Assembly (NCBI GenBank): GCA_964414675.1
Contig: CAYPYF010000003.1
Location: forward strand, 11,696-75,695
DNA: 64,000 bases
From: an uncultured Dehalococcoidaceae bacterium
Lineage (GTDB): Bacteria > Chloroflexota > Dehalococcoidia > UBA2979
Direction: 5' to 3'
The translations under genes were made by a program, and so were the position numbers. How positions within the stretch are numbered: the first letter of the stretch is position 1; every line of letters begins with the position of its first letter. A model generated the notes under the pieces. It made no database searches, was not told the origin of the DNA, and was given only the letters and a program-made list of their open reading frames with translations. Below are positions 2 through 63,695 of this stretch, one piece after another.

Positions 2-388
2 ACGCGGCGCGTCTGGCGCCGTCGTACCCCTGTGGATGTGTCCGACCCAAGTCGCACCGTCGTTGACATCATGGATACTCCCGCAGCAGCGGGTGGGGCA
101 CTTCATGCCGTCGAGGTCCTGCGCGCCTACTTCGAGAGCGAATACGCAGACGAGCGCATGCTGCTGGAGTACGGCGATCGCCTGGGGCGTGGAACGATGT
201 TCAAGCGGCTCGGGTATCTCGTCGAGCATGAGCAACTCGGGACCGAGGCTCTCATCGAAGCCTGTCGCGCGCGGATCAGTAAGGGCATCAGCCGGCTTGA
301 TCCCGATGGTCCGGAGGCCGGCAGGATCGTCTCGCGGTGGAACCTCCGGATAAACGTGCCGCGACTCGCGCCGGCGGACGCGGCATGA
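2..388 (+). CDS. AbiEi-family antitoxin (type IV TA), C-terminal fragment; 5' end lies outside the window
   Basis: The C-terminal region resembles the AbiEi C-terminal domain. Its stop overlaps the downstream AbiEii start by ATGA (385-388), the classic AbiEi/AbiEii coupling. Confidence 0.6.
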   Translation, partial: TRRVWRRRTPVDVSDPSRTVVDIMDTPAAAGGALHAVEVLRAYFESEYADERMLLEYGDRLGRGTMFKRLGYLVEHEQLGTEALIEACRARISKGISRLDPDGPEAGRIVSRWNLRINVPRLAPADAA

Positions 389-1770
389 TCGGGCGGGCCG
401 ATCTCGACGACCGCGTGCGGCGGTGGGGACTCCGCGACGACGTGGTCGAGAAGGACTACGTCCTCGGCTGGATGCTGTGGGGCATCGGCTCCGATCCGCT
501 CCTCGGTTCGACATGGATCTTCAAGGGGGGCACCTGCCTCAAGAAGTGCTACCTCGAGACCTATCGGTTCTCCGAGGACCTGGACTTCACGGTCCTGGAG
601 GAAGGGCCGATCCAGCCGGACGAAGTGATTGCTGCGCTCATGCCGGTGCTCGATCGCATCGGTCAGGAGTCGGGGATCGACTTCACGGTCCGTGAGTCGA
701 CGCTGCGTACCCGCCCGACCGGCCGTTCCGCAGAGGGTCGCGTGTACTACCGCGGGCCGCGTGGCGCGCCGACAGCCGCGAGCATCAAGCTCGATCTCAC
801 GAAGGACGAGCTGCTGGTTCGGCCGCCGGTGCTGCGGCCGATCAACCACGACTACCCGGAGATCCTGCCCGCGCCCGCGCAGGTACGGTGCTACGGGTTC
901 GAGGAGGTCTTCGCTGAGAAGCTCCGCGCGATGGGCGAACGCGCACGGCCGCGTGACCTCTACGACATCGTGAACCTGTTCCGTCGACCTGATTTCCGCG
1001 AGCACGCGGCTCTCGTCCGCGACATCCTCGCGCAGAAGTGCGCCGTGAAGGGGATCGACGTCCCGTCGGTCGCCGCGATCAGCGCCTCGCCGATGTTCGG
1101 TGAGTTGCAGACCGAGTGGGCGAACATGCTGGCGCACCAGTTGCAGGCGCTTCCCGACTTCGACCAGTTCTGGGCGGAGATGCCACGGCTGTTCGCATGG
1201 CTGGAGGGCGCTGAGTTCGATGAGGGAGCGGAGTTGGCGCCGCTCGGCGCCGAAGACGAAGCATGGACGCCGCCTCCCACGTTCTGGACCTCCGGTTCTG
1301 GTAACCGCCTGGAGCCGATCCGGTTTGCCGCGGCGAATCACCTCCTCGTGGAACTCGGATACGACGGCCGTACTCGCTCGATCGAGCCGTACTCGTTGCG
1401 TCAGACCCAGAACCGGAACATCGTCCTGCACGCGCTCCGCGCGGACAGCGGCGAGCACCGTTCGTATCGTGTGGATCGTATTCAGTCGGTCGTGGCGACT
1501 ACGCGCCCATTCACACCGCGGTATCTCGTGGAGTTCGCGAGCGCGGGGCCGATTGCGGTCGCCCCCGCGCCGGCCCCTGCACCCCGCGCCACCCGGACAG
1601 TGCCACGCCGCGGCACAAGGCCGGCCGGTCCAACGTACATTGTTGTGTGCTCGACCTGTCGGAAGCGCTTCAGGCGAGTTCGGCGCAACACGAGGCTGCG
1701 CCCACACAAGGATCCCAGCGGTTCGTGGAACTGCTCCGGTCGGACCGGATACATCGACCGTATCGAGTAG
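385..1770 (+). CDS. AbiEii/DUF1814 nucleotidyltransferase toxin fused to a C-terminal WYL domain and a CxxC...CxxxxC zinc ribbon
   Basis: N-terminal motifs VEKDYVLGWMLWGI and FKGGTCLKKCYL are typical of the AbiEii/AbiGii NTase family. The C-terminus IEPYSLRQTQNRNIVLHALRADSGEHRSYRVDRI matches the WYL pattern, followed by a CSTCRK...CSGRTGY ribbon. Likely start is the internal Met at 385. Confidence 0.7.
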   Translation: MIGRADLDDRVRRWGLRDDVVEKDYVLGWMLWGIGSDPLLGSTWIFKGGTCLKKCYLETYRFSEDLDFTVLEEGPIQPDEVIAALMPVLDRIGQESGIDFTVRESTLRTRPTGRSAEGRVYYRGPRGAPTAASIKLDLTKDELLVRPPVLRPINHDYPEILPAPAQVRCYGFEEVFAEKLRAMGERARPRDLYDIVNLFRRPDFREHAALVRDILAQKCAVKGIDVPSVAAISASPMFGELQTEWANMLAHQLQALPDFDQFWAEMPRLFAWLEGAEFDEGAELAPLGAEDEAWTPPPTFWTSGSGNRLEPIRFAAANHLLVELGYDGRTRSIEPYSLRQTQNRNIVLHALRADSGEHRSYRVDRIQSVVATTRPFTPRYLVEFASAGPIAVAPAPAPAPRATRTVPRRGTRPAGPTYIVVCSTCRKRFRRVRRNTRLRPHKDPSGSWNCSGRTGYIDRIE

Positions 1771-47382: not shown

Positions 47383-48876
47383 CTACGCGAGCCAGGCGCG
47401 CAGCCGCTCGACCGAGCCCGGGTGGCGCACGAGCGCCTGGTGCGAGACCGCGTCCGCGGGCTGGAAGACGTGGCGGTCCTGGATCGGGAAGTTCTTGCTG
47501 CCCTCGACCTCGTACACGCTGGCGGTGGGTACCATCAGGTCGTTCTTTCCACGCAGGATCAGGTCCTGGAGCGTGTCCGCGGCGTACGAGGCAAGTCCAC
47601 TGTCGGGCGCCGGCTCGAAGTCCGCGGCCAGCGCCCGATACGTCGCCTCGGCCTTCGGCGCGCCGTTCAGCGCCTTGAGGAACGCGCTGTCGGGCGCCAT
47701 CGCGGTCAGGCCCGGGAGGCCGCCTGCCGCGCCGACCGCGAGTTGCTTCACCACCGTGATCACCGTAGCCAGCACGTCCGACGCGCCCGCGTCCGGGAAC
47801 AGGTTGGCGATCGTCGTCGCCGTGTCGATGAGGTCCCCGAGGTGCTTCGGGTCAGCGAGGCGCGTGCCCGCATTCGGCGTGCCGAGGAACACGACGCGGT
47901 TCACGCGTACGCTCCCCGCCCCATCACTGCCGCCCGCGACGCCCTCGATCGTCGGCGGCTGCTCCGCCAGTACACGCGCCACCAGTCCCCCTCGAGAGTG
48001 CGCAATGACATCGAGGTCGAGCGTGACGCCGGCCGGTGCCTGCCGGAGCAACCACTCTGCATTCTCGCTCGGGTCCGCGGAGAGCGTCGGGTGGTCGAGC
48101 GCGATCACGCGACCCTCGTACCGTTCGTGGAGCCACTGGACGAAGTCCGGCGGGAGCGCACCGAACGCCGAGTGCGTCCGGCCGAGCGGCCCGTGGATCA
48201 GAAGCAGCGCGCGTCCCGCCGCGAGGCCTGCCCACGCCCCTGCCTCGATCGGTGTGACCTCGGACGAGGTGTAGTCGTCGGGCGTGAAGGTGCGCAGGCG
48301 GTACGGGCGCTTCGAGGCCTCCCAGCGGGACGCCAGCGCGTCACCCACCCGTCCCGCGATCGGATCGAGCCGCGGAAACACCAGCACCTTCAACACCCGG
48401 ATCGCGGCGGCGCCGAGGAGTCCCCGCGTCTCCGCCGGCCCCGCTGGAGGCGGGACATGGCGCGGCACCAGGTAGGTGCGCGACGCCCCGCCCCGTGTGG
48501 CCTCACCCGGTGCGCCAGCAGCCGCGATGCTCCACGATGCGACTCCCGACTCATCGACGGCGAGCAGCACTTGCTCCCAGTCAGGCCCGGGATCCGGGAC
48601 GGTGATCTCGATGGCGGGCTGTCCGAGGGCGGTGCTCCGCGTCACCCCGGCCCCGACCGGCACCTCGCGCGCCCCGACGATCTCGATCGTCTCCTGCGTC
48701 TGCATCGACTCGCCGGCGAGCACCGACTCGAGGACATCGCTCTCGCTGCTGGTGGAGCGCGTCCCGCCCGGACCGGCAGCACGCATCGTCACGCTTCCGG
48801 CCAGGCCCGGCGTGCGCAGGGTGGTACGTCCGATCTGCAGCGGCGTCCCGTTCGAGATCAGGTCAGGCATCGTCAA
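47383..48876 (-). CDS. PGAP1-like/DUF676 alpha/beta hydrolase (putative lipase/esterase) with roughly 200-aa N-terminal extension of unknown function
   Basis: Nucleophile elbow AHSRGGLVARV resembles the GHSMGG motif of PGAP1-like lipases. No signal peptide. It overlaps the upstream CHAT gene by 14 nt. Confidence 0.55.
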   Translation of the reverse strand: MTMPDLISNGTPLQIGRTTLRTPGLAGSVTMRAAGPGGTRSTSSESDVLESVLAGESMQTQETIEIVGAREVPVGAGVTRSTALGQPAIEITVPDPGPDWEQVLLAVDESGVASWSIAAAGAPGEATRGGASRTYLVPRHVPPPAGPAETRGLLGAAAIRVLKVLVFPRLDPIAGRVGDALASRWEASKRPYRLRTFTPDDYTSSEVTPIEAGAWAGLAAGRALLLIHGPLGRTHSAFGALPPDFVQWLHERYEGRVIALDHPTLSADPSENAEWLLRQAPAGVTLDLDVIAHSRGGLVARVLAEQPPTIEGVAGGSDGAGSVRVNRVVFLGTPNAGTRLADPKHLGDLIDTATTIANLFPDAGASDVLATVITVVKQLAVGAAGGLPGLTAMAPDSAFLKALNGAPKAEATYRALAADFEPAPDSGLASYAADTLQDLILRGKNDLMVPTASVYEVEGSKNFPIQDRHVFQPADAVSHQALVRHPGSVERLRAWLA

Positions 48877-51538
48877 TCCCTCCGTTCCTCTTCAGGCGCA
48901 AGGATGGGTGTCCATAGAAGAGGTACGCGAGGCTCGTCGCTGAGACGACATCCACGCCGTCCCCGAATGCCCCACGTTCACGCCTGAGGATCTCGGCAGG
49001 CGGGACGCCGGCGAAGCTCTGCTCGTAGAACCGCAGCGCGATCTCGTGGGCGACCGTGTCCTTGATCGACCACAGCGGGGCCAGCACGCCGGCCGCGCCC
49101 GAGAACAGGAACGCCTCGGCCATGCCCGCATAGTCGCCCAGGATGCGCTGGGCGCTGCCCACCTGGCAGGCGTTCAGGAACACGAACGGGGCTCGGGTGA
49201 ACGTGTGGCCGCGGATCTGCAGCGGATCGATCGTCTGCCCATCGGCGAGCACGAGGCCATGGAGCGTCGAGTTCGGGTCGTAGATCCCGTGCATCGCGAA
49301 GTGCAGCAGCTCCGCCGCCGGCTCACCGCCGAGGCAGGACAGCACGTCCGTCGCCAGTGCGTTGACCGCGACCGCGCCGTATCGCTCCTGGAGCGCCTCC
49401 GCCTCCGCCTCGGCCTCCAGAAGAGGGCTCCAGCCCGGCAGCGCGTACTGACCGCTGATCACCGCGATCGACGAGATCACCACCTCCGCCGGCGGCGGCA
49501 GCTTCGGACGGCGCGTACCCAGCACCCAGCGTCCCACGCACGTTTGCGCGCCGAGGAAGGGCGGCGCTTGCGGGTCGAGCCTGGGCTCCACGGTGGCGAG
49601 CTCCCACGGGACGTACGGCTCCTCCGACAGCAGGAAGATCGTCGGTGCGCGCCCTTCCGCACGGGCGTGGGCCGCGACCGAATCGAGCATCGACCAGAAC
49701 TGCGGTGGCAGTTGCTCGGCGACGGTGTGTCCAACCCCGAGGAGGTACGAGGCGAGGCCCGGCGTACCCTCGCGCGAGCCGACGCCGTCGACGAGCTGAC
49801 GCGCGAACTGGCCCGGCGCATCGCCGATGTCCGTCACCTCCAGCGCCCCGGGCGGCAGCGCCACATGCGGCGAGGTCATCGTCCAGCGGAGGCGGCCCCG
49901 CGACTCCTCGTCCTCCTCGATGACGACGGTCAGGTCCGCCACCGTGCGCTGCTGCGGGATCGCCACCATGCCGCGCTCGCCCTGCGCGGGTTCGTCCGCG
50001 GCGTCAAGGTCCGCCTCGGTCGCGACGGTCGTCACGTACCGCTTCGCGTAGCCGATCACAGCCCCCTCGAGGACGAAGAGCGCGCGGATGCTGCGGACAT
50101 CCGGGCCTTCGCCACGCAGCGCCAGCGGCACCAGCCGCACGTCCACCGTCGGGAAGCGCTGCCCCTCCGAGATCGTCAGGGAGCGGCGGAGTGCTGCTCC
50201 ATCGCTGACGACGAAGCCCGGCGTGTCCAGCTCGACGAGGAGTTCGTACGACTCGACGGCCGGCGAAGGCAGCTCAAACGCCTCGCCGGTCACGCCCGTG
50301 ACCTGCTCGGGTGACAGCCCGACCTCGAGTGTGAACTCTCGTCCCACGACGACCACCGGCGGGCAGTCCAGTAGCCCGTGCGCGCTGTACGTCGCCTCGC
50401 GTGACTCGCCCATGCCCGCGCTGGCGCCGGGCATGGGCGCGAGGGATGGCGTCGCACCGTTCGGCGTTACGGTTCCCACCGAGGTGGGGACGCCTGGCGT
50501 CGTCGTCGTCGGGGCTGGCGCTGGGGTGGAGACTGGCGCTGGCTGCGGTGCCGGCACGGGAGCAGACGGCGGCGTCGAGGATGGCGGGAGGGCGGTCGGT
50601 GCCGGGGCCTCGGGCGCATTGGCCCCACCACCATTCGGCGATGCCTCATCCCGGATGTCCTCGAGCCCGGGAGCCGATCCATGCCCGGCGGTCCGCCTCC
50701 GTCCGAGGAGTCCCGCGCCGGCGTTCACCACCGCGCCGATGCCCACGGGCGGAGTGCTCCAGCGCGCCCACGAGTTCCATGTGAGCGGCTCCCAGCCGAA
50801 CTGCTGGGCCAACACGCACCCGGAGAGCCCCACCATCAGGCCGCACAGCACCGCCATCATGATCCCGAACACCAGCCCGCGGCCAGCGTTCAGCACGCGC
50901 AACGCGATGAACAGCATGCCGGCGATGCCGGCGACCCCCACGAGCGCCGCGATCGCCCCGACTGGCGTCGTCAGTGGGTGAGCGCCGCCGACCTTCACCC
51001 ACCCGCTGATCGGCTCGCAGTCACCTGCGCTCACGACCACCCGGTACAGCCCGATGACCTGGAGGTGATCCCCGACGCGGATCGGCGGCTCGGCCACCCA
51101 TCGCCCATCCCGCGCCTCGAAGGACACGACATCCGTCGAGATCGGCCCGACAGACACGGTGACGGTCCCCGGAACCTTGGACGTACGGCCCACGCCCTGG
51201 ATCTCGAAGGCGACGGCCAGGCTGTCGTCCGCACGGATCGGGAGCGCGTTGTCGTAGTCCCCGAACGTATCGAGGGGGACGCCATCGATCGAGGCCTGGC
51301 ATTGCCACGGCGCACCCTGGGCGACCGCCTCGTGCGGGGCGGGAAGGGCCAGGGAGGCGAGGACCGCGCCAGCCAGTACGAAGGCCAGGGCGACGACCGG
51401 GGTGAGGCGGCGCACCACTCCGAGCACCGCGTCGGGCGCCCGGTGAGGCACAGGCGACGCAGGCGGCACTAGCCAGCGCATCAGTCGCTCCTCAGCGGGG
51501 CGCCCAGCGGCCGATCTGCCACGGCGGGGCGTACGCAT
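48863..51538 (-). CDS. Membrane-anchored CHAT-domain (caspase-like) protease: signal peptide, about 130-aa extracytoplasmic domain, two TM helices, Pro/Thr-rich linker, middle domain, C-terminal CHAT
   Basis: C-terminal LHFAMHG...FVFLNACQVGS carries the CHAT His/Cys dyad. N-terminal hydrophobic segments and a PAPTALPPSSTPPSAPVPAPQPAP linker are present. A possible alternative start is at 51481. Confidence 0.65.
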   Translation of the reverse strand: MRTPRRGRSAAGRPAEERLMRWLVPPASPVPHRAPDAVLGVVRRLTPVVALAFVLAGAVLASLALPAPHEAVAQGAPWQCQASIDGVPLDTFGDYDNALPIRADDSLAVAFEIQGVGRTSKVPGTVTVSVGPISTDVVSFEARDGRWVAEPPIRVGDHLQVIGLYRVVVSAGDCEPISGWVKVGGAHPLTTPVGAIAALVGVAGIAGMLFIALRVLNAGRGLVFGIMMAVLCGLMVGLSGCVLAQQFGWEPLTWNSWARWSTPPVGIGAVVNAGAGLLGRRRTAGHGSAPGLEDIRDEASPNGGGANAPEAPAPTALPPSSTPPSAPVPAPQPAPVSTPAPAPTTTTPGVPTSVGTVTPNGATPSLAPMPGASAGMGESREATYSAHGLLDCPPVVVVGREFTLEVGLSPEQVTGVTGEAFELPSPAVESYELLVELDTPGFVVSDGAALRRSLTISEGQRFPTVDVRLVPLALRGEGPDVRSIRALFVLEGAVIGYAKRYVTTVATEADLDAADEPAQGERGMVAIPQQRTVADLTVVIEEDEESRGRLRWTMTSPHVALPPGALEVTDIGDAPGQFARQLVDGVGSREGTPGLASYLLGVGHTVAEQLPPQFWSMLDSVAAHARAEGRAPTIFLLSEEPYVPWELATVEPRLDPQAPPFLGAQTCVGRWVLGTRRPKLPPPAEVVISSIAVISGQYALPGWSPLLEAEAEAEALQERYGAVAVNALATDVLSCLGGEPAAELLHFAMHGIYDPNSTLHGLVLADGQTIDPLQIRGHTFTRAPFVFLNACQVGSAQRILGDYAGMAEAFLFSGAAGVLAPLWSIKDTVAHEIALRFYEQSFAGVPPAEILRRERGAFGDGVDVVSATSLAYLFYGHPSLRLKRNGGIDDA

Positions 51539-51539
51539 G

Positions 51540-52493
51540 TCAGCGGGGGATCACCAGGATCTGGCCCACCCGGATCACATTGATGTCCACGATCTGGTTC
51601 GCTGCCGCGATTGCCGCGACGGTGACGCCGAATCGCACCGCGATGGACCCGAGGGTGTCGCGCGGGCGCACCTCGTAGTGCTGTCCGGGCACGGTGAGTA
51701 CCTGGCCGGTCTCGATGAGGTCCGGGTTCGCGTCCACCAGTGCCGGGAGCGCGACGCCCAGGCGCTGCGCGACCTCCACCAGCCGGTCGCCTGCCTGTAC
51801 GGTGTACTGGCTGATCGAGGTCGCAGGCGCCTCCACCTCCCGCGTTCCGATCGTGGTCGCAGTGACCGTGGCGCGGTCAATCGTCGAACTGCGTTCGCCC
51901 TCGACCCCGGCGAGCACGAACGATGCGGCGACGGTCCCCTTTTCGACGCGATCCCCCCGGACGGCGAGCGCCGTGGAGCCGAAGCCCTCCAGGTGGAGGT
52001 GGGAGTGGCAGGCGCAGCTGGAGTGATACTCGTGTCGCCGAGGATCCCCGGCCCCGTGCTGCTGGCCGCATCGCCCCGTGGGCCAGTGCTGGGGCTCCGC
52101 CGGGCCGAGCGCCCCGATCTGCACGCGCCCGGCTCCCAGCACGGATCCTGGCCCCACCAGGACGGGGTCGAGGTGGCCGTAGAGGATGCGCAGGCCGGTC
52201 TCGATCCAGCGGTCCGAGCCCTCGCGGCGCTGCAATGTCAACTGCACCACCAGTCCGCCTTCCTCGATCCGCCCGCTCCGGCAGGCCGGACGTACTGACT
52301 CGACGACCGCGCGCACCGGCGGGCCGTCGGTGCGCGCCTCGAAGAACACCGGTGTACCCCGGCTGTCCGCGAGCACGTCCATGTCGCACGACCGGTTGCC
52401 GCCGTAGGGACGGTGGTGCCCATGCGAGGACGAGGTCGTCACTACCGCCGGGATGTCGAAGGGAGAAAGGATCGAGAGTGTCGGCATGTTCAA
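51540..52493 (-). CDS. M23 (LytM-type) metallopeptidase with two C-terminal LysM domains; no obvious signal peptide
   Basis: YGHL...HLHLEG M23 motifs. Two LysM repeats (YTVQAGDRLVEVAQRLGV and YEVRPRDTLGSIAVRFGV). Confidence 0.7.
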   Translation of the reverse strand: MNMPTLSILSPFDIPAVVTTSSSHGHHRPYGGNRSCDMDVLADSRGTPVFFEARTDGPPVRAVVESVRPACRSGRIEEGGLVVQLTLQRREGSDRWIETGLRILYGHLDPVLVGPGSVLGAGRVQIGALGPAEPQHWPTGRCGQQHGAGDPRRHEYHSSCACHSHLHLEGFGSTALAVRGDRVEKGTVAASFVLAGVEGERSSTIDRATVTATTIGTREVEAPATSISQYTVQAGDRLVEVAQRLGVALPALVDANPDLIETGQVLTVPGQHYEVRPRDTLGSIAVRFGVTVAAIAAANQIVDINVIRVGQILVIPR

Positions 52494-52601
52494 CCCCTAT
52501 CGGTGCTGTGGATCGGGCTTGCGGGTGCGCGCGGTTCCGTTCAGCGCACAGGCCGCGCCCGGTCGCCTAGACTCGCCCCGGGCGGCGCGAGACGAGGCAA
52601 C

Positions 52602-53000
52602 ATGACCGAGACTCCGGCCGTGACTCGGCCGCCGAGGCTGTCCGAGGCGACGATTCAGTCGCTGCTCACGTACGTCGACGAGGAGTCCCTGCGCACCACG
52701 AGGCCTCGCACGTCGGCGCCATGGACCTGGGCGCCTCGGACGCTGCGCGTCGGGGCCGTCACCCTGGGCCGCGATATCTGCTTTCGCCCCGGCGCGTTCC
52801 GCGAAGCGGACGTGCGAGGCCTCGCGCTGATCGCGCACGAGTGCACGCATGTCCGGCAGTACCGCGAACTCGGCGCGGCGCGATTCCTGCTCCGCTATCT
52901 CTGGGGGGCGATCCGCGTGCGTTTCGTTCATGATCTCCATCCGCTCGAACTCGAACCGCAGGCGGTGCAGGTCCGTGCCCGCACCAGCCTCACCCTCTGA
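52602..53000 (+). CDS. DUF4157-like zincin-type putative metallopeptidase domain protein
   Basis: IAHECTHVRQY matches the HExxHxxQ signature of DUF4157. Divergently transcribed from the CHAT operon. Confidence 0.5.
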   Translation: MTETPAVTRPPRLSEATIQSLLTYVDEESLRTTRPRTSAPWTWAPRTLRVGAVTLGRDICFRPGAFREADVRGLALIAHECTHVRQYRELGAARFLLRYLWGAIRVRFVHDLHPLELEPQAVQVRARTSLTL

Positions 53001-53016: not shown

Positions 53017-54048
53017 TTAGTCGTCCAGCTCCCGCAGGATCAGCGGGAAGACATCCTCGGACGCCCGTTCGCCCATGAAGATGTCCAGGTGGCCGTACCC
53101 CGGGATCACGTGCAGCGACGAGGCGATGCCCTGCGACTGGAGGTAGTAGTGCGTCCGCGCCTGCGAGGCAGGCAGGAAGCACCGGTTCTGCTCGCCGGCG
53201 ATCAGCGCGAAGCGCGCGTCCGTCCGAGGGCGCTCTGCGACGAACGAGTCCGGGAGCCCCTCCACCTTGCCGGTGGAGACCAGCGCGCCCGCGCGGACGC
53301 TGGACAGCATCTGCTCGAAGAACGTGCGCGGCACCGCCGCGAACTCGTTCGTCAGCCAGTCATGTGTCGCGTCGTTCAGGTTCTCGTGGCGCCAGAGCGT
53401 CGGGAACCCGACGCCGTACGTGAACGAGGCCCAGCGGCAGACGTTGTTTCGGCACTCGTGATGCGTGGCCATGACCATGGCGTGCATGGCCTTCTGCTTC
53501 AGCCCGGGCTGGCGCTGTCCCCACTGGGGATCGAGGTACATCAGCCAGCGCCGGCTCAACGGGAGCATCATGCGGATCTTCAGCCGCGCGACGGACGGCA
53601 ACACCGGATGCAGCGACACCGCGTTGCTCACGATCGTCCGCACCTGCGGGACCAGCCCGGCAACCGCCGACATCATGAAGGAGGTGGATCCCTGGCAGTG
53701 GATCACCGCCTGCATCGAGTCCGTCCCCGTCTCACGGACGATCGTCTCGATCGCACTCGGATGGTCGTATCGCGCGGCCTGGTCGAGATCCCACAGGTTC
53801 GGCGCCACATCGATGCTCGCGCGCCAGTTCTCGAGCCACACGTCGTAGCCCGCCTCGACGAGGGCGTCGACGAGCGTCTGCCGGATCGGTGCGCGAAAGA
53901 TCTCCGCGCGCACACCGGCGCCATGCACCAGCACCACCGGCCCGCGCGTCGGCTCCGTGTCGCCGCGCACGTTGATCAGCGTGTTCTGCAACCCGTCGCC
54001 CGCCGTGTAGGGCACCACGCGGTCGTGGGTCATCGATGATGTGGTCAT
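53017..54048 (-). CDS. Alpha/beta hydrolase (putative lipase/esterase)
   Basis: Oxyanion-hole VLVHGAG and nucleophile elbow HCQGS. Confidence 0.65.
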   Translation of the reverse strand: MTTSSMTHDRVVPYTAGDGLQNTLINVRGDTEPTRGPVVLVHGAGVRAEIFRAPIRQTLVDALVEAGYDVWLENWRASIDVAPNLWDLDQAARYDHPSAIETIVRETGTDSMQAVIHCQGSTSFMMSAVAGLVPQVRTIVSNAVSLHPVLPSVARLKIRMMLPLSRRWLMYLDPQWGQRQPGLKQKAMHAMVMATHHECRNNVCRWASFTYGVGFPTLWRHENLNDATHDWLTNEFAAVPRTFFEQMLSSVRAGALVSTGKVEGLPDSFVAERPRTDARFALIAGEQNRCFLPASQARTHYYLQSQGIASSLHVIPGYGHLDIFMGERASEDVFPLILRELDD

Positions 54049-55208
54049 CGTCCGCGGGTCGCCTTCGCCCGGCCGCGCTCCAGCAGCTCCATCGCTTCGT
54101 CCGCGACGCGCTCCACGAGGTTCTCCTCGTGCTTCTTCTCAAGCTTGCACGTCTCCATCCACCGCAGCGGCTCGCGCCAGCGGAGGTCACGGGACGAGGT
54201 GCTTGCCCACGGCCCGATGACCCCGACACTGCCCAGCAGCCGTGGGCGCGTCGAACCCCAGAACCCGCGGTACCGCATCCACCAGAGGTCCGAGTCGGGT
54301 GTCGGATCGCCCTCGATCATCTCGATGACCTCGGGATGGACGCGGACACCCACCTTCTCGCTCGGCGCGGTCGTGTCAAAGGCCGGGTCGGCGGGGGGGT
54401 TGTCGCGGAACAGGCGGATGCCCGGCACGCGCTGGAGCCACTTGATGAAGACGTTGGCGATCCGCCGCGCGTAGATCACGAAGAACAGCGCGGCCGGCAG
54501 CCTCCCGGCGCTCAGCTCTCCGATGAGCGGATGCCCTCCGGAGGCGAACCGGAAGTACCCGGCGTGGGACCCGCGCGCCACGTAGACCAGCGGGCTCTCA
54601 CCCACCCGCGGAACGTCCTCCCACCTCCGTCGCACGCCGCCGTGGTGGTTGGAGTACGCGACCTCCACCGGCCGGTCATCCGTGCCGAGGGAGATCGAGA
54701 CCATCTCCCAGTCGCCCTCGTGGTGGTTCAGGAAGTCGTTGTAGATGTACAGGTACCAGTACTGGAGCACCTTCCCCTGCGGCGTGGCCACCTCGCGCGC
54801 GTAGGTCACGCAGCGGAATGGCGTGGCCTCGGATTCGGGCGTGCTCAGGTACCGCTTGTTCACCTCCCACGCCTCCGAGGGGCGTTGAGAAGCGATCTCA
54901 CAGACGTCGAGTTCCCACGCCGTGCTCTGCTCCGGCCGAGTCACGCCGATGAACGTCCGCGTGGCGAGTAGGCCGTCCGGTGTCAGCCGCCGCGATGAGT
55001 CACCACGGAAGCGACTGAGGATGCCGGCAACGAAGTCGTAGTTCTCCGGACAGTCACGACGGACTGCACGGTCGATAAAGAAGTCGACTGTGCAGGGGTG
55101 GTAGTCGCCCCAACCCTGTCGAGGACGGAATCCTCCGGGCCGGTCCCGTGAGGGATCCTGGGGGTACATAACCAGCGTGGGGTTATAGCGAGATAGGAGA
55201 GCGGACAT
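54045..55208 (-). CDS. Hypothetical protein; weak resemblance to Vps62/DUF946-type proteins
   Basis: Long ORF with NHHEGDWEMV. Start overlaps the upstream hydrolase stop. Family assignment is unsure. Confidence 0.35.
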   Translation of the reverse strand: MSALLSRYNPTLVMYPQDPSRDRPGGFRPRQGWGDYHPCTVDFFIDRAVRRDCPENYDFVAGILSRFRGDSSRRLTPDGLLATRTFIGVTRPEQSTAWELDVCEIASQRPSEAWEVNKRYLSTPESEATPFRCVTYAREVATPQGKVLQYWYLYIYNDFLNHHEGDWEMVSISLGTDDRPVEVAYSNHHGGVRRRWEDVPRVGESPLVYVARGSHAGYFRFASGGHPLIGELSAGRLPAALFFVIYARRIANVFIKWLQRVPGIRLFRDNPPADPAFDTTAPSEKVGVRVHPEVIEMIEGDPTPDSDLWWMRYRGFWGSTRPRLLGSVGVIGPWASTSSRDLRWREPLRWMETCKLEKKHEENLVERVADEAMELLERGRAKATRGR

Positions 55209-58924: not shown

Positions 58925-59352
58925 TCCGCTGGGCCGCGTTGCTGCTGTTCTACGGCTACGTGCTGCTGCTGATCGTCGCCGGCGCATGGGGTCTGCTGTT
59001 CGGCGATGTTGACCAGTGGTGGCTCCTCGGGATGGACCTCAGCCTCGTGGAGGACGAGCAGGTCCAGGCGAACGTCCTCACGCAATACCGCTTCCTGAGG
59101 GCTATCGAGCTCGGCTTCGGACTCTGCGCGTTTCGATACCGCCACGAGGTCTTCGAGGCCGTGGGCTTCTACCGGCTGTTCCTGCCGGTCATGATCTTCG
59201 GCGTCGTCGCCCGCCTGGTCTCCATCCTCGTCGATGGGTGGCCGCATCCGATCTTCCTCGCGTTCATGGGGCTCGAGGCGGCAGGCGTCGTCGCGATCTA
59301 CGCAGCGACCGCGCCCCAGCGCGAACTCCACGCCCAGGGCCAGCCCGCGTGA
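58921..59352 (+). CDS. Small integral membrane protein
   Basis: Hydrophobic profile with ATGA overlap to the previous gene. Confidence 0.5.
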   Translation: MIRWAALLLFYGYVLLLIVAGAWGLLFGDVDQWWLLGMDLSLVEDEQVQANVLTQYRFLRAIELGFGLCAFRYRHEVFEAVGFYRLFLPVMIFGVVARLVSILVDGWPHPIFLAFMGLEAAGVVAIYAATAPQRELHAQGQPA

Positions 59353-60980
59353 CTGCCCTCGGCGCGCACCGCCCGGCGCTGACGGCGCCCCCCGCCGAGG
59401 CGACACCGTCGATCGACGCGACGCCGAACCGCGCGCTCATCCTCGCGGGGGGTGGGATGCGTGTCGCCTATCAGGCGGGTGTCCTCCGCGCGGTCGAGGA
59501 GGCGGGCATCACCTTCCACCACTTCGACGGCACCTCGGGCGGCATCATCAACCTCGGGATGCTGTTCTCCGGCGTTGCGCCGGAGGAGATGTGCCGCCGC
59601 TGGCGCTCCCTGAACGTTCGGAAGTTCGTCTCCCTGCCCCCCGCACGGAGGTTCTTGCGCGCCACTCGCATGGCCGCCGTCGGCGACGCCCGCGGCATCG
59701 TCCAGCAGGTGTTCCCTCACCTCGGCATCGACCCGTCGAGGATCAATGCGGCCGCCGGCGGAACGGCCACGTTCAACGTCTGCAACTTCACCGACAAGAC
59801 CATCGAGGCCATCCCGCACGATCGGGTGACGCGTGACCTCCTCGTCGCCGGGATATCGCTCCCCGTGTTGATGCCCGCGGTGCGCGTCGGGGACGTTACG
59901 TACACCGATGCGGTGTGGATCAAGGACGCCAACCTCCTGGAGGCCGTCCGTCGTGGCGCCGAGGAGCTCTGGCTGGTCTGGTGCATCGGCAACACACCGG
60001 CGTTCCGGGACGGCGCGCTCAACCAGTACGTGCACATGATCGAGATGAGCGCGAACGGCTCGCTGTTCGACGAGTTCGCGCAGATCCAGGTCCTGAACGA
60101 AGAGATCGAGGCCGGCCGGTCACGCTACGGTCAGAGGCGCCCGGTCCGGCTCCACGTCATCAAGCCGGCCCTCCCGCTGCCGCTCGACCCGGATCTCTAC
60201 CTCGGCCACATCGACAACGCGACGCTGATCGACATGGGGTACCGGGACGCCTCGACGTACCTGCGCACCCGATCAGAAGCAGGGGTGCGATTCACCCCGG
60301 AGGCCACGAAGATGACCGAACCGCAGCTCGGGATCACGTTCCGCGAGACCATGTCCGGCCCGTTCGCCCTCGGCGAGACCGACCCGCGCGCCGGCGCCGA
60401 AGCAGGCAAGCGCGCCGGCACCAACCTCGCGATGCATGCCGCTGTCGAGATCGACTCGATACGCGCGTTCGTCGACGACCCCGAGCACCCCGGCAGCCTC
60501 GCCGGCCGCATCGACTTCACCCCCTGGGGCGAGGCCATCCCCGCTGCCAGCGGCGTCTTCAACCTGTTCGCCCCCACCGCGCAGCCAGACCTGAAGCACA
60601 TGGTGTACGAGTTGCAGTTCCAACATGCCGGTCAGGCGTACTACCTTGCCGGCCGCAAGGAGGTGAAGAGCGACAGCCACGGCCTTGACCTCTGGTCAGA
60701 CACCACCACCCTGCTGACGACGCTGCACGAGGGTGACGACGCCTCCGGCCCGGTCGTCGGTGCAGGTGTCCTCTCACTCGGCCCGGACGACCTCGCGCGC
60801 CTCATCAAGACCGTGCGCGTCACCGGAGACCCGTCCGCCCTCGACCGCGCGCGCACCATCGCCACGTTTGGCTCGTTCTTCATGGGCGAACTGTGGGATA
60901 CCTACGCCACTCCAATCCTCCAACCGGCCTCGTGGTGGAAGCGCCCGTTCCGATGGCTGCGCGGCCTGGCCCGTCAGTAG
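59349..60980 (+). CDS. Patatin-like phospholipase with roughly 290-aa C-terminal extension
   Basis: Oxyanion GGGMR, nucleophile DGTSGG, catalytic Asp in DGA. GTG start overlaps the previous stop (GTGA). Confidence 0.75.
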   Translation: MTALGAHRPALTAPPAEATPSIDATPNRALILAGGGMRVAYQAGVLRAVEEAGITFHHFDGTSGGIINLGMLFSGVAPEEMCRRWRSLNVRKFVSLPPARRFLRATRMAAVGDARGIVQQVFPHLGIDPSRINAAAGGTATFNVCNFTDKTIEAIPHDRVTRDLLVAGISLPVLMPAVRVGDVTYTDAVWIKDANLLEAVRRGAEELWLVWCIGNTPAFRDGALNQYVHMIEMSANGSLFDEFAQIQVLNEEIEAGRSRYGQRRPVRLHVIKPALPLPLDPDLYLGHIDNATLIDMGYRDASTYLRTRSEAGVRFTPEATKMTEPQLGITFRETMSGPFALGETDPRAGAEAGKRAGTNLAMHAAVEIDSIRAFVDDPEHPGSLAGRIDFTPWGEAIPAASGVFNLFAPTAQPDLKHMVYELQFQHAGQAYYLAGRKEVKSDSHGLDLWSDTTTLLTTLHEGDDASGPVVGAGVLSLGPDDLARLIKTVRVTGDPSALDRARTIATFGSFFMGELWDTYATPILQPASWWKRPFRWLRGLARQ

Positions 60981-61259: not shown

Positions 61260-63695
61260 CTAGTCCGAAGCAACGACTCCCGTCCCGAGGGCGAGTCCGA
61301 ATGGGTTGTCCTGGATCCACGCCTCGAACTGCGCGGCCGGCATCGGTCGGGCGAAGTAGTACCCCTGCGCGACATCGCATCCGAGCTCGGTCAGCAGGTC
61401 CGCGACCTCCTGAGTCTCGACGCCCTCGGCGATCGACCTCACGCCGAGGCGGCTCGCCATCGCGATCGTGCTTTCGACGATGTCGCGAGATCGCGGGTTC
61501 GACATCAGGTCCCGCACGAACGACTGATCGATCTTGATCGTCGAGATCGGCAGGCGGTGGAGGTACACGAACGGTGAGTAGCCCGTCCCGAAGTCGTCGA
61601 TGGAGAGGTCGAGGCCAGCGCGACGGAGGTTCTCGCAGACGGAGACCGCCTCATCCATGTCGGAGAGGATCGCCGTTTCGGTGATCTCGATGTCCAGTGC
61701 CCCCTCCGGCAGTGCCCACTCCGCGACGATGTCCGTGATGCGCGCCGCGAGCTGTGTGTCCTCGAAGTCGGCTGCCGACACGTTCACGCCGATCGGCACG
61801 GGGCGCCCAGCCTCCTGCCAGGTGTGCGCCTGCTGGCTGGCCGTCTTGACGGCCCACGTCGTGAGGTGCCGGACGTAGCCGGTCTGCTCCGCCAGCCCGA
61901 TGAACTGTGCCGGCGGGACGAACGTGCCGTCCTCCCGCTGCCAGCGCATGAGCGCTTCGACCCCGACGATCCGGTTTCGCTGGAGGTCGACCTGCGGTTG
62001 GTAGTAGAACTCCAGGTCGCCATCGCTGAGGGCGCCCCGAAGCGCGGTCAGCAGTTTCAACTGGTCCGCCCGAGGTTCATCGCGGGCGGCGTCGTACATC
62101 GCCAACCCGTGATGCCCGAGCTTCGTCCGGCGGAGCGCGAGGCTGGCCCGCCTCGCGAGCGCCGCCGCAGTCGTGCCGTTCTCGGGGTAGCGCGCGAGGC
62201 TCGCACGGCTGCCCAGGTAGACCGGCTCCCCGTTCATCTGGAACGGCCGCTCGAATGCGTGTTCCAGCGTCGTCGAGACATCGAACGCGCTCCCGAACGA
62301 TGCGTCATCCTCGATCGTCGGGGTCAGCAGCGCCATGAACTCGTCGCCACCCGTGCGCCCTACCAGCGTCTCGCTGCCGAAGACCTCGACGAGTCGCGGG
62401 CCAATCTGGCGGAGGAGCTCGTCGCCGCCGTCGAACCCGAACGTGGCGTTGACCGCGCCGAACTGTCGGAGTTGGACCTCCAGGAGGAGTAGTGGAGTCT
62501 CCGGCGACTGCTGGATGCGCTCATCAATGAGGCGCTCCATCTCCATCCGGTTCGGGAGCGACGTCAGCATGTCCGTCGTCGCGTTTCGCCGCAGCGTGAC
62601 GTGTGCCTCGCCGACCGCGTCCGCCATCGACTCGAAGGCGCCGGCGAGCGACGCCATCTCGCTGCTCGAGGTCCGTGTAAGCCCGACGCGCGCTCCGAAG
62701 TCGCCACTCGAGTACCGCTGCGCCGTGCGCAGGAGTCTCTGCACCGGGTGAAGCACGCTCACCGTGCTGATCCCCCATGACCACGTGAGTCCTACCACGG
62801 TCATCACCCCGAGCACGCCGAGGGCCTGTTGGAAGGTGCGGTTGGCTCCGGCGAGGGCGCGGCTCTTGGGCGAAGTCACCACCACGTATCCCGGGATCGA
62901 ACCGGCGTGGCTGTCCAGCGGGACGACAGCGCCCAGCACCGGTTCCTCCCCCGGCGTCGCGATCTCCAGGACGGAGGGCTTCGTCGTGCGGACCGCGCTG
63001 CCCGACCACGGGAGGAGACCGGCGCCGCCGACAGGCGTCGCGGTTGCCCGTGGCACCTGGAGGAGCACGAACCCGTTTGGGCCCAGGACGGTCGTCTGGA
63101 TGTCGGCGCGGGTACTGAGTGATTCGAAGAGCATCTCGAGCCACGCGAGGTTGACCGAAAGCTGGACCACCCCCACGGGCACCCCGTCACCGTCCAGGAG
63201 CGGCATGGCGAAGAGGGACACCGGCCGGTTCGAGATACGCCCGAACAGGTACCCACTCGATGCGAGGTCGCGCGTCCGGAGTGTCTCCTGGAAGTATGGG
63301 CGGTCGCCGACGAACGCCCCCATCCCGTCGGGGTTCGCCGAGCAGACCACCACCCCGTTCCGCCCGACGACCGCAGTGTTTGAGTACGCGGAATGCGCCG
63401 ACGTCACCCGACGGAGCACCTCGTTACAGGAGTCAGCGCCGAACACGCGCAGCGCCGGGTCGATCGACAGTTCCCGCAGGAGGTCTGCGACGACATCGAT
63501 CAGCTGGTTATGGGTGGTGGCCACGAGGCGCGCCTGCGCCAGGAGGTCGCCTTCCACCTGAGTGATCGCGCTCTCCCGTTCGCTGTTGCTCTTCCAGAGC
63601 AACAGCGCCCCCATCGCAACGATCAGGACGAGGATCATCGTCATCAGTCGCCATCGGATGCCGAACAAGAAGACAGGCACGGAGAACTCCGTCAT
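61260..63695 (-). CDS. Membrane sensor diguanylate cyclase/phosphodiesterase (periplasmic Cache-like domain, HAMP, GGDEF, EAL)
   Basis: GGDEF motif RTGGDEF and EAL motifs (EALMRW, ...DDFGTGYS...). Confidence 0.85.
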   Translation of the reverse strand: MTEFSVPVFLFGIRWRLMTMILVLIVAMGALLLWKSNSERESAITQVEGDLLAQARLVATTHNQLIDVVADLLRELSIDPALRVFGADSCNEVLRRVTSAHSAYSNTAVVGRNGVVVCSANPDGMGAFVGDRPYFQETLRTRDLASSGYLFGRISNRPVSLFAMPLLDGDGVPVGVVQLSVNLAWLEMLFESLSTRADIQTTVLGPNGFVLLQVPRATATPVGGAGLLPWSGSAVRTTKPSVLEIATPGEEPVLGAVVPLDSHAGSIPGYVVVTSPKSRALAGANRTFQQALGVLGVMTVVGLTWSWGISTVSVLHPVQRLLRTAQRYSSGDFGARVGLTRTSSSEMASLAGAFESMADAVGEAHVTLRRNATTDMLTSLPNRMEMERLIDERIQQSPETPLLLLEVQLRQFGAVNATFGFDGGDELLRQIGPRLVEVFGSETLVGRTGGDEFMALLTPTIEDDASFGSAFDVSTTLEHAFERPFQMNGEPVYLGSRASLARYPENGTTAAALARRASLALRRTKLGHHGLAMYDAARDEPRADQLKLLTALRGALSDGDLEFYYQPQVDLQRNRIVGVEALMRWQREDGTFVPPAQFIGLAEQTGYVRHLTTWAVKTASQQAHTWQEAGRPVPIGVNVSAADFEDTQLAARITDIVAEWALPEGALDIEITETAILSDMDEAVSVCENLRRAGLDLSIDDFGTGYSPFVYLHRLPISTIKIDQSFVRDLMSNPRSRDIVESTIAMASRLGVRSIAEGVETQEVADLLTELGCDVAQGYYFARPMPAAQFEAWIQDNPFGLALGTGVVASD

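Follow-up and report, generated by a model that had tools for sequence, protein, structure and literature searches.

The M23LysM gene and its product

The stretch of DNA analysed here, hereafter the window, covers 64,000 nucleotides of a contig from an uncultured Dehalococcoidaceae bacterium (CAYPYF010000003.1), and the gene under study, M23LysM, encodes an N-terminal M23-like catalytic domain joined by a linker to two C-terminal LysM domains (Table 1). M23LysM stands first in a same-strand array, in which it is followed by the gene of a membrane CHAT protease and by a DUF7379 gene, and the three are presumably co-transcribed. Its product is very probably an active, wall-targeted hydrolase of the M23 type that is unable to export itself, and the following sections give the evidence for this assignment, the distribution and gene order of the family, and the readings of its function that these allow.

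The likelier start of the M23LysM gene is ATG 52487 rather than TTG 52493, because the former is preceded by AGGGG with a spacer of 6 nt and a public gene call with an identical 315-residue protein supports it. An in-frame TAG (52497-52499) lies one codon 5' of the TTG, and an upstream start that would add a signal peptide is therefore impossible. With a third-position GC content of 0.87, compared with 69.7% GC for the window as a whole, the open reading frame (ORF) is a real coding sequence. The N-terminus of the protein (MPTLSILSPFDIPAVVTTSSSHGHH...) contains no Lys or Arg among residues 1-22, and the highest 10-residue Kyte-Doolittle mean within residues 1-50 is 1.41, with no hydrophobic core. 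In the AlphaFold2 model, residues 3-7 and 14-20 form β-strands of the folded domain with a predicted local distance difference test (pLDDT) value of ~94. A motif and hydropathy scan over the full length revealed neither a twin-arginine motif nor a transmembrane (TM) segment, and none of the Sec or Tat signal peptides, lipoboxes and membrane anchors typical of LytM-type autolysins and factors could be found in the protein. The absence of a hydrophobic leader, as claimed in a preliminary description made from the sequence, is thus borne out, and the product is predicted to stay in the cytoplasm, away from its substrate and not exportable via Sec or Tat.

A divergent M23-type catalytic domain

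The sole Pfam family matched by the protein is LysM (PF01476; E 8.8e-22; score 77 bits, cut-off 20.9), which is found in two stretches and agrees with the two C-terminal repeats reported previously. The linker that precedes them varies in length and is almost gone in homologues of 295 residues. Peptidase M23 (PF01551) was not matched at E ≤0.01 in Pfam, where its gathering score is 28.7 bits, and relatives of the catalytic domain with other architectures reach it only below threshold, at 17-22 bits. Searches with phmmer and hmmsearch against PDB sequences did not find a match to the catalytic domain, the family profile too finds no solved M23 chain, and NCBIfam gave only partial LysM matches, DipM-type among them, leaving the catalytic domain unmatched. 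Using hhalign, the family could be aligned with a small canonical M23 alignment, in which one lysostaphin sequence served for register only, over 31 columns (the YxHL...G..iG stretch) with a probability of 58%.

AlphaFold2 models the full-length protein with a pLDDT of 78.6, and the domain alone as a β-rich structure with a pLDDT of 82.5 and a predicted template modelling score of 0.82. Foldseek searches of the PDB initiated with the domain model gave, as the best 46 matches, M23 or LytM-domain proteins throughout, the best of them being LasA, with template modelling scores of 0.22-0.57 (mostly 0.33-0.57), probabilities of 0.30-1.00 (most ≥0.9) and E-values of 2e-3 to 0.3. These matches include Csd1/2, ShyA, pseudoalterin, beta-lytic protease, LysTt72, StM23 and phi29 gp13, as well as LytU, LytM, SpoIIQ, EnvC, DipM, EnpA and lysostaphin. 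Similarity to M23 is moderate and lies at the level of the modelled fold.

M23 enzymes are defined by the motifs H(x)nD and HxH, where n is variable (12 in LasA, 7 in gp13), and by an extra His upstream of HxH (PMC9662197). The corresponding residues of M23LysM, H24-x10-D35, H105 (within YGHL) and H163-L-H165-L-E167, are invariant in 20 full-length homologues, and the same set is retained in most of 63 more distant representatives in a motif survey of 85 proteins; among distant relatives, 53 of the 57 sequences aligned at this position retain H24, and 54 of 58 retain D35. H105 precedes HxH by 57 residues, as against the usual ~30, because of an insertion at residues ~129-161, which harbors the invariant residues Q133, W135, H144, E153-Y-H155 and H161, along with C158, which is invariant and also common to the distant clade described below. 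Because the modelled fold matches, the invariant defining residues and the sub-threshold PF01551 scores of relatives agree with one another, the N-terminal domain is best regarded as a divergent M23-type domain, assigned by predicted fold and motifs below the Pfam threshold. The M23 domain of the preliminary description is right with this qualification. Peptidoglycan is the probable substrate, and targeting to the wall is indicated by the two LysM domains and by relatives in which the same catalytic domain is fused to SH3_3 and LysM or to GH46.

A leaderless core clade and its secreted relatives

The full-length architecture was found in 22 proteins of 49-100% identity among 5.8 billion clusters, and a profile of the catalytic domain recovered 65 representative clusters out of 1.84 billion, of which 18 have E <1e-30. 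In species-representative genomes all six matches come from metagenome-assembled genomes (MAGs), five labelled Chloroflexota or Dehalococcoidia and one labelled 'bacterium' only, and the close relatives of M23LysM that could be placed are all found in Dehalococcoidia-class Chloroflexota MAGs. The window itself falls into this group by its DnaN, whose homologues bear names at class level. DnaN from the same lineage has thousands of relatives, against 22 for M23LysM, and because of this difference we consider the gene patchy and accessory, which speaks, in line with the preliminary description, against a housekeeping role.

The family splits into a core clade and a distant clade, the latter related to the former at profile level with E-values of 1e-10 to 1e-3. 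As judged by a crude hydrophobicity heuristic, a hydrophobic N-terminus occurs in no member of the core clade, whereas almost all full-length members of the distant clade carry a classical signal peptide or a lipobox. Architectures of the core clade comprise the catalytic domain followed by two LysM, the domain preceded by SH3_3 and LysM, the domain at the C-terminus of proteins that begin with GH46, and the domain alone. The secreted sister clade (P0056-P0097; HHRPYGGD...YAHL...CWxGPHVHVE) shares H24, D35, C69, YxHL, C158 and HxHxE with the M23LysM clade, but differs from it in its signal peptides and lipoboxes, in the absence of the insertion at 129-161, of whose residues only C158 is common to both clades, and in its accessory dockerin, SLH, tectonin and Ig-like domains. 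Since the lack of a leader is uniform in the core clade while the distant clade carries signal peptides, it is a conserved and selected trait rather than a start-codon artefact, and the M23LysM product must therefore rely on another factor for reaching the wall, as the preliminary description had also supposed. That description had named an upstream start with a leader and homology to secreted LytM factors as evidence to the contrary; the in-frame TAG precludes the former, and the close homologues are leaderless.

One leaderless protein, P0037 (781 residues; L017:1704-4049), has an N-terminal GH46-type glycosidase, a long repeat-rich middle and a C-terminal M23-like domain, and would represent a wall hydrolase with two catalytic heads that lacks an export signal. 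While the M23 fold, LysM and CHAT are of known kinds, what appears to be new is a catalytic subfamily missed by current libraries, its split into leaderless and secreted forms, and its pairing with three kinds of partner. Public records name these M23-like proteins merely 'LysM domain-containing', and the leaderless/secreted split offers a useful natural experiment on the restraint of wall hydrolases.

Partner genes of M23LysM

Gene order was compared across 11 distinct loci with an M23LysM gene. In all of them a same-strand partner is situated directly beside M23LysM, either overlapping it or within 60 nt. Three types of arrangement could be discerned. In type 1 (four loci: the window, L013/L014, L001/L002/L006 and L015), M23LysM is followed by CHAT and DUF7379; in type 2 (five loci: L003/L018, L008/L011, L009, L019 and L020), it is preceded, with a 14-nt overlap, by a gene for a Tle1-like DUF2235 lipase; and in type 3 (two loci: L004/L007 and L005/L012), it is preceded, at a gap of 11-21 nt, by a gene for an unannotated protein of ~180 residues. 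A lipase-like α/β-hydrolase, either DUF7379 or the Tle1-like DUF2235 protein, is thus among the partners in nine of the 11 loci. Similarity between DUF7379 and the Tle1-like protein is undetectable, and 'lipase-like partner' is therefore a functional grouping and not one family. The type-3 partners (L004:7413-7979 and L012:4450-4989) are 60% identical, contain the motifs DDCDGFAAL and HTVCAFH, and are unmatched in Pfam, in NCBIfam and among PDB sequences; going by the motifs alone, they could be papain- or transglutaminase-like Cys-His enzymes. The constant feature across the loci thus seems to be tight pairing with a gene for another leaderless hydrolase, a putative one in type 3.

In the type-2 loci L003 (9235-9903) and L011 (6076-6753), a gene for a DedA/VTT-domain membrane protein is found directly 3' of M23LysM on the same strand; these two loci are broadly syntenic, and the adjacency is for this reason not independent evidence of a link. 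A leaderless-looking protein with LysM and EAL domains is encoded 3 kb downstream of the type-1 array in L001 (16064-16888).

The CHAT and DUF7379 genes

The CHAT gene of the window begins either 1 nt (ATG 51538) or 58 nt (ATG 51481) past the M23LysM stop. ATG 51481 is the more likely start, as it is served by a GAGGAG Shine-Dalgarno sequence and as the L013 homologue begins at the equivalent MRWL. The topology predicted from hydropathy (Table 1) would place the CHAT domain, with its His/Cys dyad, in the cytoplasm and the ecto-domain outside; the in-in TM hairpin of an acidobacterial CHAT homologue agrees with such a cytoplasmic location. Between the start of DUF7379 and the stop of CHAT there is an overlap of 8 nt (ATGCCTGA). 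Some DUF7379 homologues also match Abhydrolase_6 or carry the JGI name carboxylesterase, and the protein is a candidate lipase-like α/β-hydrolase with presumed lipase activity.

DUF7379 has more than 395 homologues, including those from Chloroflexia, Acidobacteria, Krumholzibacteria and Planctomycetes, with names also from Thermoanaerobaculia and Isosphaeraceae. The CHAT and DUF7379 genes overlap by 4-8 nt at their stop and start codons in the window (47383..51538, minus strand), in L022 (4471-8473) and in L023 (4209-8476), and in L022 and in Acidobacteria the two are found in the absence of M23LysM. They thus appear to form a translationally coupled module that is conserved across phyla, as gene context shows for Dehalococcoidia and Acidobacteria, and within which the N-terminal membrane or sensor part of the CHAT protein varies between phyla. 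A literature search found no mention of DUF7379 or of a system combining CHAT and LysM, and the locus provides the first testable context for this widespread pair.

Table 1. Features of the M23LysM, CHAT and DUF7379 genes in the window; all genes lie on the minus strand, and CHAT membrane features follow the 891-residue numbering
Feature	Residues	Window position	Strand	Basis or remark
M23LysM gene	1-315	51540..52487	-	315 aa from ATG 52487; stop 51540-51542; alternative TTG 52493 (317 aa, ORF 51540..52493)
Divergent M23-like catalytic domain (predicted)	1-195	51903..52487	-	Invariant columns, motif survey, AlphaFold2, Foldseek
Predicted zinc ligands	H24; D35; H165	52416-18; 52383-85; 51993-95	-	Analogy with M23 definition (PMC9662197)
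Predicted catalytic residues	H105; H163	52173-75; 51999-52001	-	Analogy with M23 definition (PMC9662197)
His/Cys-rich insertion, clade-specific, invariant	~129-161		-	Alignment
Disordered, non-conserved linker	196-224	51816..51902	-	pLDDT <50 for 196-224 (AlphaFold2)
LysM domain 1	~225-267	51687..51815	-	PF01476; β-α-α-β in AlphaFold2 model; PDB LysM matches
LysM domain 2	~268-314	51546..51686	-	PF01476 best stretch; AlphaFold2; PDB LysM matches
Membrane CHAT protease gene		48863..51538	-	891-aa ORF; 872 aa from likely start ATG 51481
CHAT signal peptide or TM1	47-65			Hydropathy
CHAT ecto-domain	~130 aa, after TM1			Hydropathy
CHAT TM2 and TM3	195-244			Hydropathy
CHAT TM4, weak, conserved, Gly-rich, followed by RRR	~263-279			Hydropathy
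CHAT Pro/Thr-rich linker	Between TM region and CHAT domain			
CHAT domain	702-856	48971..49435	-	PF12770 E 2.3e-19; PDB 8rot_B (CHAT protein) E 1.4e-5
CHAT dyad, intact	H750; C791	49289-91; 49166-68	-	Motifs
DUF7379 gene		47383..48870	-	495 aa from ATG 48870; PF24096 E 1.3e-52; no signal peptide
DUF7379 motif HG	~227-228		-	
DUF7379 nucleophile elbow AHSRGG	S294	47995-97	-	
Intergenic region between M23LysM and divergent DUF4157 gene		52488..52601		114 bp; presumed cassette promoter region, from coordinates

Genomic surroundings and links to phages and injection systems

The preliminary description had likened M23LysM to phage endolysins. While the layout of a leaderless catalytic domain with wall-binding repeats is indeed that of an endolysin, a link to phages could not be recovered. 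IMG/VR yielded no relative of the catalytic domain, a tblastn search of INPHARED gave no match to M23LysM, and PHROGs matched only the LysM segments, to endolysin families, and nothing on the catalytic domain. Viral M23 folds fit the domain model no better than cellular ones, Arthrobacter phage Lysin A being weakly similar. The window genes that were scanned (~45 ORFs) are ordinary chromosomal ones, such as dnaN, dinB, rib genes, pst/phoU, nhaA, transporters and signal peptidase, and no holin, integrase or structural phage gene was seen nearby among them. We thus reject a phage origin of M23LysM on the strength of the missing catalytic-domain matches in IMG/VR, INPHARED and PHROGs and of viral folds that fit no better; the resemblance to endolysins is one of design and not of descent.

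A sigma-70 consensus scan of the intergenic region upstream of M23LysM did not reveal a promoter, and the promoter and terminator scan was uninformative. Divergent from M23LysM across this region is a DUF4157/eCIS_core gene (52602..53000, plus strand), which encodes a stand-alone protein of 132 residues with an HECTH zincin motif and is missing from the syntenic locus L013. No structural genes (sheath, tube or baseplate) of an extracellular contractile injection system (eCIS) were present among the scanned ORFs. A link to such systems through this neighbour was considered and rejected, since the neighbour is not conserved and the array in L013 abuts the remnant of another gene. This remnant (L013:7137-7421) comprises the N-terminal 94 residues of an unannotated protein of 387 residues and adjoins the M23LysM start directly; in the window the intact gene lies upstream of the array and overlaps by 4 nt that of an α/β-hydrolase of 343 residues (53017..55208 together, minus strand). 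As judged from the remnant, the two genomes differ by an insertion or deletion of ~2.6 kb.

A gene for a patatin-like phospholipase is also found ~7 kb or less from the array, both in the window (59016..60980, plus strand) and in L013 (2777-4402). Together with DUF7379 and the 343-residue α/β-hydrolase it makes the neighbourhood unusually rich in lipase-like genes, which may be a coincidence. Farther away, the window encodes a 477-residue protein with an AbiEii nucleotidyltransferase toxin domain of the kind found in type IV toxin-antitoxin and abortive infection systems (337..1770, plus strand; Pfam E 1.9e-40) and a dCache-HAMP-GGDEF-EAL signalling protein (61260..63695, minus strand). Wall-synthesis genes were absent from the ORFs scanned.

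A possible latent lytic cassette and its alternatives

Based on the domain composition, the conserved lack of a leader and the gene order described above, we favour, with a probability of roughly 0.35, a reading in which M23LysM supplies the wall-degrading activity of a lytic cassette that lies latent in the cytoplasm, and whose partner enzyme would give it access to the wall. In such a cassette a trigger would be sensed, at this locus probably by the CHAT protein through its extracytoplasmic domain, and relayed by CHAT proteolysis; the lipase-like partner would then open the cytoplasmic membrane from the inside, upon which the M23-LysM protein would gain access to peptidoglycan and cut the wall, as in an endolysin system where the hydrolase partner stands in for a holin. 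Both the CHAT-dependent activation and self-lysis as the outcome are suppositions within this scheme. Regulated lysis, which the preliminary description had suggested, is a plausible hypothesis. If the cassette is real, bacteria would hold an endolysin-like enzyme of non-phage provenance in a latent state, with a lipase or caspase-like protease, and not a holin, bringing about its release, and the cassette would be a novel means of programmed lysis, or of setting a killing enzyme free. A more specific and rather unlikely version is that of holin-independent suicide lysis, where the membrane CHAT protein senses envelope or phage stress and unleashes DUF7379 and then M23-LysM, with two-gene Tle1-like versions in sister lineages.

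Several observations weigh against the lytic cassette. CHAT is adjacent to M23LysM in four of the 11 loci and absent in seven, and one MAG (L022 and L004) has CHAT-DUF7379 and M23LysM on different contigs, with all three proteins ~60% identical to those of the window and diverging in parallel; CHAT control cannot therefore be a general mechanism. The preliminary description, which placed M23LysM at the head of an operon with a membrane protease, is right in that the gene is first in its array and the CHAT protein membrane-bound; in the family at large, the link to CHAT is recurrent and lineage-specific but not obligatory. No obvious regulator accompanies the type-2 and type-3 loci, and the linker at residues 196-224 contains no conserved candidate site for cleavage by CHAT. 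PADLOC gave no known defence-system model for the three proteins, with a marginal match to BovA at E 0.0026, and the H24 loop and the insertion at 129-161 are of low confidence in the AlphaFold2 domain model. The host itself may also present a difficulty, as Dehalococcoidales and SAR202 lack peptidoglycan synthesis genes while basal Dehalococcoidia retain the pathway (PMC10608941), and self-lysis would be impossible if the host has no peptidoglycan. Sortases encoded in the MAG of L004 are a hint that one host at least has a wall.

The main rival, which is possible though somewhat doubtful and would be favoured if the hosts are devoid of peptidoglycan, is that of an anti-bacterial weapon, in which M23-LysM and its hydrolase partners attack other bacteria after release by vesicles, by lysis of a subpopulation or by an unrecognised secretion or injection route, the missing leader keeping the enzyme harmless to its producer. 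The patchy, accessory distribution suits a weapon, as do the shuffled wall-binding and catalytic modules typical of weaponised hydrolases and the pairing with a Tle1-like lipase, Tle1 being named after anti-bacterial effectors of the type VI secretion system. Archaea without peptidoglycan make killing peptidoglycan hydrolases, 68% of which have no recognised signal peptide, and the leaderless archaeal hydrolases tend to accompany contractile injection systems (PMC12352652); parts of Dehalococcoidia are likewise without peptidoglycan (PMC10608941), and in the window a DUF4157/eCIS_core gene adjoins M23LysM. If the hosts lack peptidoglycan, M23LysM would be a bacterial parallel to these recently described archaeal weapons. 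However, this neighbour is not conserved with the cassette, secretion or injection genes were found neither among the scanned ORFs of the 64-kb window nor in the locus flanks, no candidate immunity gene was seen, and the CHAT and DUF7379 partners look cytoplasmic. An intracellular enzyme that cuts UDP-MurNAc-peptide, inner-leaflet lipid I/II (with LysM on GlcNAc/MurNAc) or a protein, and has no need of export, is distinctly less probable. It would account for the conserved leaderless state, the insertion at 129-161 (H144, H155, C158, H161), missing in secreted relatives save for C158, might provide an additional metal site fit for a reducing cytoplasm, and LasA-type M23 enzymes cleave proteins too (PMC9662197). 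Yet the SH3_3 and GH46 modules of relatives indicate a polymeric wall substrate, and the constant pairing with lipase-like genes is left unexplained. M23 enzymes are not known to process precursors in the cytoplasm.

An ordinary wall-remodelling autolysin of division or separation, exported by an unrecognised Chloroflexota route and with incidental neighbours, is about as improbable as the intracellular enzyme. M23 combined with LysM is a common autolysin layout, as the partial matches to DipM-type NCBIfam models illustrate, and the sortases in the MAG of L004 suggest a wall, but the distribution within the lineage is very sparse, three tight partnerships with other hydrolases recur, the host uses Sec-type leaders (the CHAT protein bears one, and signal peptidase I is encoded in the window), and the distant secreted clade shows that the fold normally bears a leader. 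Still harder to sustain is a prophage lysis-module remnant, that is, a domesticated endolysin: its layout, the PHROGs endolysin families matched by the LysM segments and the weak fold similarity to Arthrobacter phage Lysin A are offset by a catalytic domain unmatched in phage and viral sequences, viral folds that are no better than cellular ones, the absence of holin, integrase and structural phage genes among the scanned window ORFs nearby, and the parallel divergence of the three proteins, which suggests vertical inheritance. An equally remote reading is that of a catalytically dead LytM-type regulator, like EnvC, NlpD or SpoIIQ, serving as activator or scaffold for the partner enzyme. The modelled fold also matches EnvC, DipM and SpoIIQ and a partner gene is always present, but H24, D35, H105, H163 and H165, which are lost in degenerate LytM factors, are invariant here.

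Comparison with known systems

The best structural matches of the catalytic domain are M23A peptidases, namely LasA/staphylolysin, beta-lytic protease and pseudoalterin (PDB identifiers 3it5, 8af1 and 6ik4). The predicted domain resembles these in its size of ~180-195 residues, its long H(x)nD spacer (10 in M23LysM and 12 in LasA), its HxH motif and its upstream catalytic His. It differs from them in that the fold alignments have an identity of 10-15% with no match at the sequence level, and in that M23LysM is unsecreted, has no pro-peptide, possesses LysM modules and carries the invariant, His/Cys-rich insertion of ~30 residues before HxH.

Endolysins of phages with Gram-positive hosts consist of an N-terminal catalytic domain and a C-terminal LysM or SH3 domain, are leaderless and depend on a holin, and in mycobacteriophages the wall hydrolase LysA is paired with the lipolytic enzyme LysB. 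M23LysM resembles such systems in its leaderless modular layout, in logically requiring a further factor to get past the membrane and in the lipase-like partner at nine of 11 loci, but it is without phage homologue, holin or prophage context, and its partners are CHAT, DUF7379, the Tle1-like lipase and the ~180-residue protein. Operons that combine a protease with an executioner are exemplified by bacterial gasdermins encoded beside caspase-like or CHAT proteases and by the TPR-CHAT protein of the type III-E Craspase. The likeness here is a CHAT protein with an intact His/Cys dyad encoded beside potential effectors (four of 11 loci); the difference is that no known defence model is matched and that the effector would be a wall hydrolase, a lipase-like enzyme or both, and not a pore-former. 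Should the suicide-lysis version hold, it would represent protease-controlled bacterial death with envelope-degrading enzymes, in place of pore-formers, as the effectors.

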